Of a DNA stretch of 36,062 bases, positions 3-36,062 are shown piece by piece (position 1 is the stretch's first letter; every line of letters starts with the position of its first letter). The stretch is from a virus. The DNA is taken from IMG/VR virus record IMGVR_UViG_3300031853_000142, positions 1 to 36,062 of that record. One strand, 5' to 3'. Position numbers and translations under genes: made by a program. The notes under the pieces are model-generated. The model did not search any database, was not told the origin of the DNA, and saw only the letters and a list, made by a program, of their open reading frames with translations.

Positions 3-164
3 GAATGGATTAATAGTGAATGGTTCGGTTTGAACAGAGCTTTAGTCAATGCCCGTACTGTTAGCAGATTGATTAGTAGCGGTATGTATTGCAATAGTAA
101 TATTTTAAGTGAAATCAATTATGAGAAGGATGGTAATCTTGGATATTACTGGGTGGAAGTATGA
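3..164 (+). CDS. 5'-truncated hypothetical protein (...EWINSEWFGLNRALVNARTVSRL...YYWVEV*)
   Basis: Open frame from window start to TGA 162-164, overlapping the MTase start as ATGA (translational coupling typical of virus operons); not in the ORF track. Confidence 0.6.
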   Translation, partial: EWINSEWFGLNRALVNARTVSRLISSGMYCNSNILSEINYEKDGNLGYYWVEV

Positions 165-1453
165 AACAACCAATAAAATATTTCAGTATGTTTAGTGGAA
201 TAGGAGGTTTTGAGTATGGAATGGAACAATCTGATTATGAATTTGAGTGCGTTGGTTACAGCGAAATAGACAAGTATGCGAGGAGTATTTATGAAAGACA
301 CTATCCAAACCACATTAACTACGGAGATGCAACACTCATCAATACCGAAGACTTGCCAAGTTTTGAGTTCCTCGTTGGAGGATTTCCTTGTCAAGCTTTC
401 AGCATTGCTGGAAAACGAAAAGGATTTGACGAAGCAAGAGGAACACTATTTTTTGAGATTGCAAGGGTTCTCCGAGACAAAAAGCCCTCTTGTTTTTTAC
501 TCGAAAACGTTAAGGGCTTATTATCTCATGATAGGGGCCGAACTGTCCAAACCATTTTTAGGGTCTGCGATGAACTCGGGTATGATGTATCATGGGCGGT
601 TTATAATTCCAAAGACTATGGTGTGCCGCAGAATAGGGAGAGGATTTTTATTAAGGGATATTCTCGAACCAGTTGTGGAGGAGAAGTATTATCTGTCCCC
701 AGAGTTGACAAGGCGGTTGATGAGCCAATGAGCAACACTTATTATGGTGTTCGTGCTGGTCGTGGGCATAAGGATGATGAGATTATGAACACCTTGTCTT
801 GCAGTGGTCATAATGGTGGAAGTAGCCAGTTAATACAAATCAATGATAAGAAGCAACAAGCAGAGCGTGTTTATGATAGTGAGGGTTTGGCTGCAACATT
901 GTTAGGTACGGGGAGTAAAGGATTGTATAAAATCAATAAGGTTGGGGAAATCAATAATCATCAATCTGGTCAAGTTTATGATGTTGATGGGATTTCTCCT
1001 ACACTATGTGGTGGTGATGGGGGATTAGGTGCAAGAACTGGATTGTATAAGATTAACACGGTTAAAAAGGGTAAACATCAAAGTGGGAATGTTTATGGTG
1101 ATGATGGAGTGAGTCCTTGTTTAACTGCTGTAGATTATAAAAGACCAGTGAAAATTGTTCAACCTGTGCTTACTCCTGAACGTGAAAACAAAAGACAAAA
1201 CGGCCGCCGTATGAAAGACAATGATGAGGAAATGTTTACATTAACAGCAACAGACAAGCATGGAGTCTACGATGGCATAACCGTCCGCAAACTAACACCA
1301 GTGGAATGTGAAAGGTTGCAAGGGTTCCCTGATGACTGGACAAAATACGGCAAAGACAACGAACCGATATCTGACACACAACGATACAAATGTTGTGGTA
1401 ATGCAGTTACTACGAACGTGATATCTGCGATAATAGAGGAGATGTTCCAATAA
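161..1453 (+). CDS. DNA (cytosine-5)-methyltransferase, main (alpha) reading frame
   Basis: Motif I FSGIGG, IV GFPCQ, VI ENVKGL, VIII PQNRERIF, variable region with repeated modules, IX RKLTPVECERLQGFPD, X RYKCCGNAV. Confidence 0.96.
   Translation: MKQPIKYFSMFSGIGGFEYGMEQSDYEFECVGYSEIDKYARSIYERHYPNHINYGDATLINTEDLPSFEFLVGGFPCQAFSIAGKRKGFDEARGTLFFEIARVLRDKKPSCFLLENVKGLLSHDRGRTVQTIFRVCDELGYDVSWAVYNSKDYGVPQNRERIFIKGYSRTSCGGEVLSVPRVDKAVDEPMSNTYYGVRAGRGHKDDEIMNTLSCSGHNGGSSQLIQINDKKQQAERVYDSEGLAATLLGTGSKGLYKINKVGEINNHQSGQVYDVDGISPTLCGGDGGLGARTGLYKINTVKKGKHQSGNVYGDDGVSPCLTAVDYKRPVKIVQPVLTPERENKRQNGRRMKDNDEEMFTLTATDKHGVYDGITVRKLTPVECERLQGFPDDWTKYGKDNEPISDTQRYKCCGNAVTTNVISAIIEEMFQ
291..731 (+). CDS. 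Overlapping +1-frame ORF (146 aa), M.EcoHK31I beta-polypeptide-like
   Basis: AGGAG SD at 281-285 before ATG 291; C-terminal NSGMMYHGRF...LLRDILEPVVEEKYYLSPE resembles the recalled beta polypeptide; ATG and open frame conserved in the diverged second copy. Confidence 0.72.
   Translation: MKDTIQTTLTTEMQHSSIPKTCQVLSSSLEDFLVKLSALLENEKDLTKQEEHYFLRLQGFSETKSPLVFYSKTLRAYYLMIGAELSKPFLGSAMNSGMMYHGRFIIPKTMVCRRIGRGFLLRDILEPVVEEKYYLSPELTRRLMSQ
368..732 (+). repeat. 365-bp exact direct repeat, copy 1 (identical to 35698-36062)
   Basis: Line-by-line comparison; offset 35330 bp; upstream sequence is homologous but diverged back to the MTase start, and unrelated beyond it. Confidence 0.97.
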
Positions 1454-33738: not shown

Positions 33739-34107
33739 ATGTTAACTTGTGAATACGATGAAAGAAACCAATGCAAAGGCTGCAAACTAGAAAACAACTG
33801 CCTACTCAAAATAGGACTAACACCCAGCCTAAGACAAATACAAGACCACATACGAGACCTACTCAAGTTGATAAACATGGCAGAAACAGACCTAAACACA
33901 ATCGACAAAATACAACGATTCATCGACAACGGATTATACGAGAAACAAAGAAACATCTTCGGCGATCCAATAACAAAGGTTAGTGATGTTGCCAATTATC
34001 CGCCAAGGGATGAAGTGGCTGAAGAGTTGGATGATTTACGGTATGAGCTTAAATTGTACAGGCGTAAGGAATTCGAATTGATTAAAGAAGTGGTGAATAA
34101 ATTATGA
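33739..34107 (+). CDS. Hypothetical protein with N-terminal Cys cluster
   Basis: C...CKGC...C; AGGAG SD. Confidence 0.7.
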   Translation: MLTCEYDERNQCKGCKLENNCLLKIGLTPSLRQIQDHIRDLLKLINMAETDLNTIDKIQRFIDNGLYEKQRNIFGDPITKVSDVANYPPRDEVAEELDDLRYELKLYRRKEFELIKEVVNKL

Positions 34108-34817
34108 GGATAATTGTTGATACTCGTGAGCATGGCCCAAGGGGCTTAACATCTACAAGGAAGAGCCGAGCCCTGGAGTATTATTCTAGTAAGGGTTACG
34201 ATTGCGAAATACGGCAACTTGAATTCGGTGATTACCTATTCAATAACCAAGTAGTTTTTGAGTATAAACTAATCGATGACCTGATGAAGAGCATCACCAA
34301 CGGCCGTTTATTCGACGAGTGTGTTAACCAAACAGTAACTTACCCTTACAGTTACTTGATTGTTGAAGGAGATTTGCAGGATTATATCCTGGATAGTTGG
34401 GAGTCATATAATGTTCGCAAGCAGTACCTATTTGATTATCATAAATTCATAAAATCCACATATTCAAGGTATGAAGGAGCAATAAGGCGAGTGCAGACCA
34501 TCTGCCCAGTAATCTATGCAGCATCTGAGAGTGTGGCTTTCCAGGAGATGCTTTTACAGGCTCAGAAATGTTGTGAAAGCCGGTACTATGGTAGTGAGGT
34601 TAAGAATCTTGTTAAATCTGCTTCCGCGGTGGATAGTGTGTTGTGTAGTGTTAAGGGTGTGAGTGATAAGAAGGCAAAACTGATTAAGGAAACATTAAAC
34701 ATCAAAAATTTAAACGATTTAATCAATTGTTCTGTCAAGGATTTTAACAAGGTCAAATCAATAGGGGAAATCACTGCGAATAATCTATATGAGTTTATTC
34801 ATAAAAAGGAGGATTAG
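34104..34817 (+). CDS. ERCC4/XPF-family structure-specific nuclease with HhH2 (probable resolvase)
   Basis: IIVDTRE, GDY, FEYK..DD and LIVEGD motifs; two HhH motifs (SVKGVSDKKA, KVKSIGEITA). Confidence 0.88.
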   Translation: MRIIVDTREHGPRGLTSTRKSRALEYYSSKGYDCEIRQLEFGDYLFNNQVVFEYKLIDDLMKSITNGRLFDECVNQTVTYPYSYLIVEGDLQDYILDSWESYNVRKQYLFDYHKFIKSTYSRYEGAIRRVQTICPVIYAASESVAFQEMLLQAQKCCESRYYGSEVKNLVKSASAVDSVLCSVKGVSDKKAKLIKETLNIKNLNDLINCSVKDFNKVKSIGEITANNLYEFIHKKED

Positions 34818-35258: not shown

Positions 35259-35338
35259 GTGAAGCTGATTATTGCATTTTAGGAGAAGGATTTTGCCAAT
35301 GGTGTAGGTATTGTATAATCAAGTATAAGGAGGATTAG
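35255..35338 (+). CDS. Tiny Cys-rich peptide (27 aa, MSEADYCILGEGFCQWCRYCIIKYKED)
   Basis: ATGA coupling to the upstream stop; four Cys; not in the ORF track. Confidence 0.45.
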   Translation: MSEADYCILGEGFCQWCRYCIIKYKED

Positions 35339-35341
35339 AGA

Positions 35342-35482
35342 TTGACTGATGACCAATTATTCGGTGAAACCGACCTTGAAGAAAAAATTAAGGAACTGGA
35401 AGGGGAAGTGAAATCTTTGAATGCTTTCCTTGTACATAATGGCTTTGCAGAAGAGTATACCCGATGGAAAGGTGATGATTGA
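35342..35482 (+). CDS. Small hypothetical protein (46 aa, TTG start)
   Basis: AGGAGG SD upstream; stop overlaps the MTase ATG; not in the ORF track. Confidence 0.55.
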   Translation: MTDDQLFGETDLEEKIKELEGEVKSLNAFLVHNGFAEEYTRWKGDD

Positions 35483-36062
35483 TGAGTGAAAAAACAATCA
35501 AATACTTCTCGATGTTTAGCGGCATTGGAGGATTTGAATACGGAATAGAAAAAGCAAACACACAAACCGACTTTGAATGCGTCGGTTATTCAGAAATAGA
35601 TAAATACGCGGTGAGCATATATGAAAAACACTATCCAAACTACATTAACTATGGAGATGCAACAAAAATCAATACCGAAGACCTGCCAAACTTTAGCTTC
35701 CTCGTTGGAGGATTTCCTTGTCAAGCTTTCAGCATTGCTGGAAAACGAAAAGGATTTGACGAAGCAAGAGGAACACTATTTTTTGAGATTGCAAGGGTTC
35801 TCCGAGACAAAAAGCCCTCTTGTTTTTTACTCGAAAACGTTAAGGGCTTATTATCTCATGATAGGGGCCGAACTGTCCAAACCATTTTTAGGGTCTGCGA
35901 TGAACTCGGGTATGATGTATCATGGGCGGTTTATAATTCCAAAGACTATGGTGTGCCGCAGAATAGGGAGAGGATTTTTATTAAGGGATATTCTCGAACC
36001 AGTTGTGGAGGAGAAGTATTATCTGTCCCCAGAGTTGACAAGGCGGTTGATGAGCCAATGAG
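35482..36062 (+). CDS. DNA (cytosine-5)-methyltransferase, second copy, truncated by the window end
   Basis: MSEKTIKYFSMFSGIGG...GFPCQ...ENVKGL...PQNRERIF; GGTGAT SD; absent from the track because no stop is reached. Confidence 0.93.
   Translation, partial: MSEKTIKYFSMFSGIGGFEYGIEKANTQTDFECVGYSEIDKYAVSIYEKHYPNYINYGDATKINTEDLPNFSFLVGGFPCQAFSIAGKRKGFDEARGTLFFEIARVLRDKKPSCFLLENVKGLLSHDRGRTVQTIFRVCDELGYDVSWAVYNSKDYGVPQNRERIFIKGYSRTSCGGEVLSVPRVDKAVDEPM
35621..36061 (+). CDS. Overlapping +1-frame ORF (146 aa), beta-polypeptide-like, second copy
   Basis: GGTGAG SD at 35610-35615 before ATG 35621; same length as 291-731 despite 5' divergence. Confidence 0.72.
   Translation: MKNTIQTTLTMEMQQKSIPKTCQTLASSLEDFLVKLSALLENEKDLTKQEEHYFLRLQGFSETKSPLVFYSKTLRAYYLMIGAELSKPFLGSAMNSGMMYHGRFIIPKTMVCRRIGRGFLLRDILEPVVEEKYYLSPELTRRLMSQ
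35698..36062 (+). repeat. 365-bp exact direct repeat, copy 2 (runs to the window end)
   Basis: Identical to 368-732. Confidence 0.97.

Follow-up and report, generated by a model that had tools for sequence, protein, structure and literature searches.

The closest described system in gene layout is M.EcoHK31I of E. coli (YGGCCR), a C5-cytosine DNA methyltransferase (MTase) in which the gene for alpha also encodes, wholly inside it and in a different frame, a small beta polypeptide (PMC2836561, PMC3404938). Both chains are required for activity (PMC2836561 and PMC3404938, where the result is taken from Lee, Kam and Shaw 1995), and beta supplies motif IX, which is missing from its alpha (PMC2836561, PMC3404938). 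M.AquI is a natural two-chain C5-MTase, the alpha and beta of which are split in the variable region, and an artificially split M.SssI tolerates the loss of a few proximal residues of this region (PMC3404938).

Nested ORFs of the type analysed here have been annotated in bacterial viruses. The genes orf13 and orf14 of Streptococcus phage MM1-1998 (GenBank DQ113772) carry the putative annotation 'C5 methyltransferase alpha/beta subunit', and the nested ORF of S. thermophilus phage P0093 (gp46/gp47) also has a putative annotation in GenBank. Our literature search yielded no paper in which such nested ORFs are treated as a family.

Here, we have analysed a 36,062-bp IMG/VR record over its full length (the window), in which an MTase gene, alpha, contains a second ORF, beta, in the +1 frame (Table 1). 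As in M.EcoHK31I, beta lies entirely within alpha. However, beta does not supply motif IX; its 146 aa extend over motifs IV–VIII and the segment that follows motif VIII, while EcoHK31I-beta is 61 aa long. The likeness to EcoHK31I, which we compared by its description, is therefore one of gene layout and not of the piece supplied. A resemblance of the beta C-terminus to EcoHK31I-beta, proposed in the preliminary description of this DNA, was not borne out, because EcoHK31I-beta carries motif IX, a different element. The division seen in M.AquI, with motifs I–VIII in alpha and IX–X in beta, is found in three relatives of the window gene (L056, L064 and L066). In the window itself alpha is untruncated through motifs IX–X, beta has neither a target-recognition domain (TRD) nor IX–X, and the two chains, unlike those of M.AquI, overlap over motifs IV–VIII (146 codons).

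MM1-1998 and P0093 have an MTase of the same family and the same layout as the window, with +1 ORFs of 139–141 aa. In MM1 the +1 ORF opens ∼25 codons ahead of motif IV and has SLSDILE..V.E.YFLS at its end, and the window shares with orf13/orf14 a stop-depleted +1 ORF that spans motifs IV–VIII and extends past them on both sides. These two phages infect bacteria (Firmicutes), whereas the window is from an archaeal virus. The precedents for annotating the nested ORF are thus MM1-1998 and P0093, and what is particular to the window is the combination of a short form of this ORF and an archaeal host.

The methyltransferase gene and its two alleles

The record is classed as linear and ∼91% complete. 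Its structural genes resemble those of Methanobrevibacter viruses, and the top match of its MTase gene in the phage collection is Methanobacterium virus Drs3, in agreement with the earlier assignment to a virus of methanogenic archaea. The Drs3 MTase (gp12; NC_062738) shows 73% DNA identity over 43% of the gene, and its +1 ORF, which is unannotated in the record, shows 47.6% protein identity over 98% of the window beta. Unlike the window, Drs3 has a long form of the ORF (198 aa) with an extra N-terminal stretch that looks TRD-like by eye; a phmmer comparison of the Drs3 +1 ORF with frame-0 TRD regions gave no match at E ≤ 0.01. Downstream of the homologous MTase gene, Drs3 has a gene with an ERCC4-domain annotation and a second MTase gene.

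Table 1. Coordinates of the features of the MTase locus in the window
Feature	Position	Strand	Remarks
Alpha, complete C5-cytosine DNA methyltransferase gene, 430 aa	161–1453	+	Pfam PF00145
Alpha motif I	191–211
Alpha motif IV	380–394
Alpha motif VI	503–517
Alpha motif VIII	629–643
Alpha motif IX	1286–1330		RKLTPVECERLQGFP
Alpha motif X	1397–1420
Three tandem TRD-like modules of alpha	∼860–1123	+	..ERVYDSEGLAATL.., ..GQVYDVDGISPTL.., ..GNVYGDDGVSPCL..
17-codon +1-frame mini-ORF	216–269	+	SD AGGAGG 202–207; ends 6 nt before ATG 276
AGGAG, Shine-Dalgarno-like	281–285	+	5 nt upstream of beta ATG 291
Beta, nested +1-frame gene, 146 aa	291–731	+	ATG 291 to TGA 729–731
Beta 'anchor', residues 94–146	570–728	+	hairpin SGMMYHGRFII 576–608, LRDILE 651–668, KYYLS 684–698
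Second alpha allele, 5'-diverged	35479–36062	+	cut by the record end; identity of 91% overall and of 100% in the last ∼365 nt
Second beta copy, 146 aa	35621–36061	+	GGTGAG at 35610–35615 upstream

Alpha matches the Pfam family PF00145 with E = 4e-82 over profile positions 2–323 of 324, and its closest solved relative is M.HhaI (E = 1.6e-50). All ten motifs of the C5-MTases are present, including I (F.G.GG), IV (PCQ), VI (ENV), VIII (Q.R.R), IX and X; the last two had been ascribed to alpha before, and we located both. The TRD-like modules of alpha suggest, from their sequence, a multispecific methyltransferase. Such enzymes are known from Bacillus phages, which the window alpha would resemble in this respect. 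We also noted that the second of these modules aligns weakly to the target-recognition loop of M.HhaI.

What alpha does not have is the feature that canonical single-chain enzymes carry in the same chain after motif VIII (F.FPK...L.D.L...KYYLS). When the profile of the alpha family was compared with canonical MTases, a gap appeared opposite 'skyyls'. In an AlphaFold2 model of alpha alone the large domain was well modelled and residues 177–371 had a pLDDT <50. Judged by sequence, alpha probably has a structural gap at the post-VIII position.

The second copy of beta has the same ATG and length as the first, and a different Shine-Dalgarno (SD) sequence, as was described earlier; beyond about base 370 the two alpha alleles do not differ (100% identity), so that the second copy offers independent evidence over only ∼80 nt (19 differences). 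The MTase gene is found at both ends of the record (1–735 and 35320–36062), with different 5' parts and different upstream genes. The differences between the end copies comprise 19 in the region 270–370 and indels near the start, the last ∼365 nt being identical. The ends of the record look like two alleles joined via a common core (the genome being circular or concatemeric, or two strains having been assembled together) and not like a clean terminal repeat. Upstream of the second allele there is a 237-aa ORF at 34104–34817.

Depletion of stop codons in the +1 frame

We measured the openness of the +1 frame by permuting synonymous codons within alpha, a procedure that keeps the protein and the codon usage. 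For the region 270–728 of the window gene, 6.1 stops in the +1 frame were expected and 0 were observed. The probability of finding no stop in this region was 5e-5, and that of any open run of at least 153 codons was 2.5e-4.

For comparison, 59 related loci were fetched from IMG/VR. Every homologue in which motif VIII of alpha is followed by Q.RER..I.GHL.G.S...VFP has a +1 ORF of 141–309 codons in the same region, while the +2 frame of the same homologues is open for only 7–81 codons. For 26 distinct full-length genes, 30–60% identical to the window alpha, stops were counted over a region that begins 20 codons ahead of motif IV and closes 30 codons past motif VIII. The expected number of +1 stops was 3.6–9.3 per gene; 25 of the 26 genes had none and the remaining one had a single stop. 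In the +2 frame of these genes the number of stops matched the expectation (11.4 versus 11.1).

As a control we used a sister group of canonical MTases, in which the catalytic core is equally conserved and most members have F.FPK...L.D.L...KYYLS in frame 0. The 42 control loci lacking the +1 ORF had 5–22 stops in the +1 frame of the same region, about as many as expected. One locus of the control set, L115, is alone in having KYYLS in the +1 frame, where its ORF extends over 174 codons. The check on stop depletion that had been proposed for this locus thus came out in favour of the nested gene, and the open +1 frame is not a product of chance.

The ORF is also widely distributed. A HMMER search with beta matched 540 database proteins (protein clusters) at E ≤ 1e-3, and tblastn with beta matched 215 phage records, mostly of Streptococcus, Clostridium and Lactococcus phages, where it is almost always unannotated.

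Codon-level selection in the overlap

Along the rest of alpha the entropy of the three codon positions follows the normal order, with the third position (H3) highest. Over alpha codons 161–180, which encode the LRDILE...KYYLS of beta, this order is reversed (H1 0.93–1.03, H2 0.66–0.74, H3 0.35–0.65), which indicates that the +1 frame is the more constrained one there. The reversal over the anchor is also seen when the 19 short-form genes are taken alone (H3 of 0.47 versus H1 of 0.91).

A synonymous-site test was carried out on conserved codons in which no change at the third position can produce a +1 stop. At these codons the third-position entropy was 0.61 inside the overlap versus 0.77 outside (p = 0.007), and no difference was seen in the canonical controls (0.79 versus 0.80). 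This lower synonymous variability in the overlap points to some amino-acid constraint on the N-terminal part of beta too. Reduced synonymous variation, another computational check suggested for this locus, is hence present in the family and absent from the controls. Stop depletion, together with a coding-type codon pattern, supports the earlier view that the +1 ORF is selected as a coding frame, and on these computations both frames are under purifying selection across a large phage family.

Start signals and surroundings of beta

The nested ORF, its enclosing gene and the AGGAG before its ATG are as the preliminary description gave them. The extent of beta relative to the motifs was stated there too narrowly: it does not lie wholly inside motifs IV–VIII, as its first codon is 32 codons ahead of the PCQ of motif IV (386) and its end is 33 codons past the QNRER of motif VIII (629). 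An alternative ATG for beta is present at 276, and the +1 frame is free of stops over 270–728 (153 codons).

A start preceded by an SD sequence is expected in 14% of the synonymous shuffles of the window gene. Among the 44 ORFs of the window virus, GGTGA is found upstream of 7 and AGGAG upstream of 6. Conservation of the SD and ATG held in part across the family: the pair is enriched, being present in 9 of 27 genes where 3 were expected, but it is not universal.

Several further features were observed around the ORF. The SD (AGGAGG) and the ATG of the 17-codon mini-ORF upstream of beta are formed by motif I codons (GIGGFEYG). The second copy has no ATG at this place and hence no mini-ORF. In the long-form relatives L014 and L032, the SD and ATG within motif I open the long beta ORF. 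The beta stop codon TGA overlaps an in-frame alpha Met190 codon (ATGA, 728–731). We considered this overlap as a coupling signal and rejected it, as it was seen in none of 26 other homologues examined. In a metagenomic relative of 95% identity (L065), frame 0 is interrupted by a stop where the window has base 683, and a gene is called from the ATG at the Met190 position, so that alpha is split there and beta is intact.

The C-terminal anchor of beta and its predicted fit onto alpha

In an alignment of 44 beta sequences, the invariant and near-invariant columns fall in the last 50 residues, with K72 as the one exception. The conserved columns (G97, G102, L121, D123, L125, V129, Y133, L135 and S136) are all present in the window beta, which thus shares with the MM1 type both the C-terminus G..NG...L.D.L..V..KYFLS and the selection on the +1 frame. 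When the beta C-terminus was compared with the canonical post-VIII segment by hhalign, a probability of 91% and an E of 1e-6 were obtained. L.DILE...KYYLS had earlier been recognised as a stretch that canonical single-chain C5-MTases carry in cis behind motif VIII, and the comparison confirmed this. The +1 ORF is present exactly when this segment is missing from frame 0. At the level of profiles, the computation shows that alpha lacks the post-VIII segment and that beta has it.

Modelling of alpha together with beta, one of the checks proposed earlier, gave a predicted docking that passes its controls: the complex scored 0.82 and the best of three controls 0.00, although the score may owe something to single-chain MTases known to the model, which have the segment in cis. 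By the tool's own statement, the mark for this score is reached by 58 of 80 solved complexes and by 2 of 110 mismatched pairs. The runs agreed in at least 81% of the contacts, with a partner pLDDT of at least 73. In the model, beta residues 94–102 pair with alpha 142–147 (the motif VII strand), and beta 121–146 contacts alpha 374–386 (motif IX).

Taken alone, beta had a mean pLDDT of 54 in AlphaFold2, and only residues ∼121–146 were confident; its protein-language-model recognition score was low. A Pfam search with beta returned only sub-threshold noise, the profile of the 44 beta sequences had only chance Pumilio matches among PDB sequences (E ≥ 0.08), and a search of the ESM Atlas by features gave no usable match for beta.

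Long-form relatives and possible movement of modules between frames

In the long-form relatives the +1 ORF opens near motif I, and its upstream part has phmmer matches, with E as low as 7e-16, to TRD regions that other MTases encode in frame 0. The N-terminal part of the long-form beta of P0038 matched the window TRDs weakly by BLASTP (E = 0.022). In L064 and L066, alpha ends shortly past motif VIII, and it is the +1 protein that runs on to include motifs IX–X, so that a complete enzyme in these relatives needs translation of the +1 frame. Compared with these forms, the window beta would be the short form, i.e. the anchor alone, of a modular second subunit, with the TRDs and motifs IX–X retained in alpha.

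Two other arrangements were noted among the relatives. An (AG)9 tract (L064:645–662) lies between the end of the conserved part of beta and the TRD, at the frame junction. At present the beta frame of L064 continues into TRD-IX-X and alpha stops; one more repeat unit would join alpha to them instead. Phase variation by this repeat is possible. No simple-sequence repeat switch was found in the window. In L067 (65–1621) and L066 (1456–2554), alpha is extended between motifs I/II and IV by long hydrophilic insertions of low complexity, which in the +1 reading form a well-formed TRD module. In these insertions the main frame seems to be merely kept open for the nested gene.

A probable two-chain enzyme and its alternatives

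From these results we consider it probable that the MTase gene is dual-coding and that the working enzyme is a heteromer of alpha and an independently translated beta. A two-chain MTase, as first suggested for this DNA, remains the best reading, with a predicted complex that passes its controls. According to this proposal, frame 0 would give alpha, with the ten C5-MTase motifs and three target-recognition modules and without the canonical post-VIII segment, and the +1 frame would give beta from its own start (ATG 291 behind AGGAG). The first ∼95 residues of beta would be overprinted on motifs IV–VII of alpha, and the last ∼50 would be the missing canonical segment. This anchor would dock on alpha through the motif VII edge strand and the motif IX helix, and in the alpha–beta assembly it would complete the junction of the catalytic and target-recognition domains. 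We infer that beta is translated independently, binds to alpha and takes part in methylation; independent initiation is favoured because in every homologue the +1 frame stays open over at least 100 codons ahead of the anchor. Alpha, judged by its numbered motifs, every one of which is present, and by its full-length Pfam match, might nevertheless work alone.

Alternatively, beta might be translated and selected as a regulator of alpha (a competitor or a timing switch) or for an unrelated function in infection. The full set of ten motifs with the full-length Pfam match, the lack of a recognisable fold in the N-terminal ∼95 residues of beta and the weaker selection on this part than on the anchor would all suit such a role, which we regard as unlikely: the most conserved part of beta is the very segment of canonical MTases that alpha is missing, the ORF occurs exactly when that segment is not in frame 0, the same protein carries TRDs and motifs IX–X in the relatives, and the complex model places the anchor on alpha. 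Another reading takes the short-form beta as a shrinking, still open remnant that became dispensable once alpha had acquired its own TRDs and motifs IX–X. The window beta is indeed devoid of the N-terminal TRD modules of the long forms, and a stop at 267–269 separates it from their motif-I start. However, the 19 short-form genes taken alone have the reversed pattern over the anchor and a lowered H3 in the overlap, 16 of the 17 short-form genes tested have no stop (the other has one), and the ORF is kept in both window alleles and in the 95%-identical metagenomic relative; we find a remnant distinctly unlikely.

Independent initiation of beta has itself to be weighed against programmed ribosomal frameshifting near motif VIII, which would produce a truncated alpha ending in an LSDILE...KYFLS tail. 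The SD and ATG are not conserved in most homologues, and a T-run (645–649) lies just upstream of the anchor, both of which would fit a frameshift. Yet a frameshift at this place has no need for the +1 frame to be open further upstream, where all the homologues keep it open; the H3 of 1.21 in codons 151–160, around motif VIII, argues that there is no conserved slippery site; and the long forms have TRD modules in the upstream +1 part. We therefore hold frameshifting to be very improbable. As to an open frame that arose by chance, or an ancestral one that has died and no longer codes, it is true that scanning many windows yields some long ORFs in alternative frames, and that the second copy, being mostly identical to the first, is uninformative. 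The family-wide stop depletion, the matched controls and the coding-type substitution pattern of the +1 frame contradict this explanation, which is barely credible. The alpha–beta heteromer with a separately initiated beta is thus the reading that we carry forward.

Implications for phage methyltransferases

Should beta work as a subunit, half of the enzyme is missing from most annotations of this common phage MTase family. Alpha clones that have been recoded or codon-optimised would then silently lose beta, and both frames would be needed for predicting the methylation specificity of a phage and hence its escape from host restriction. The pair would also be among the clearest and most widespread long same-strand overlapping genes in prokaryotic viruses, and the family with the overlap comes with a built-in control family that has none. 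The same device would serve both a methanogen virus and Firmicutes phages.

More tentatively, a very large family of C5-MTases from phages, prophages and archaeal viruses may consist of obligate heteromers, with the second chain overprinted on the catalytic core and serving as a modular specificity subunit; on present evidence we would not put this generalisation above a possibility. Should it be true, modules can move between frames and one gene could vary what gets methylated, a simple-sequence repeat may switch the reading frame of the modules in some relatives, and the layout spans the boundary between bacteria and archaea.
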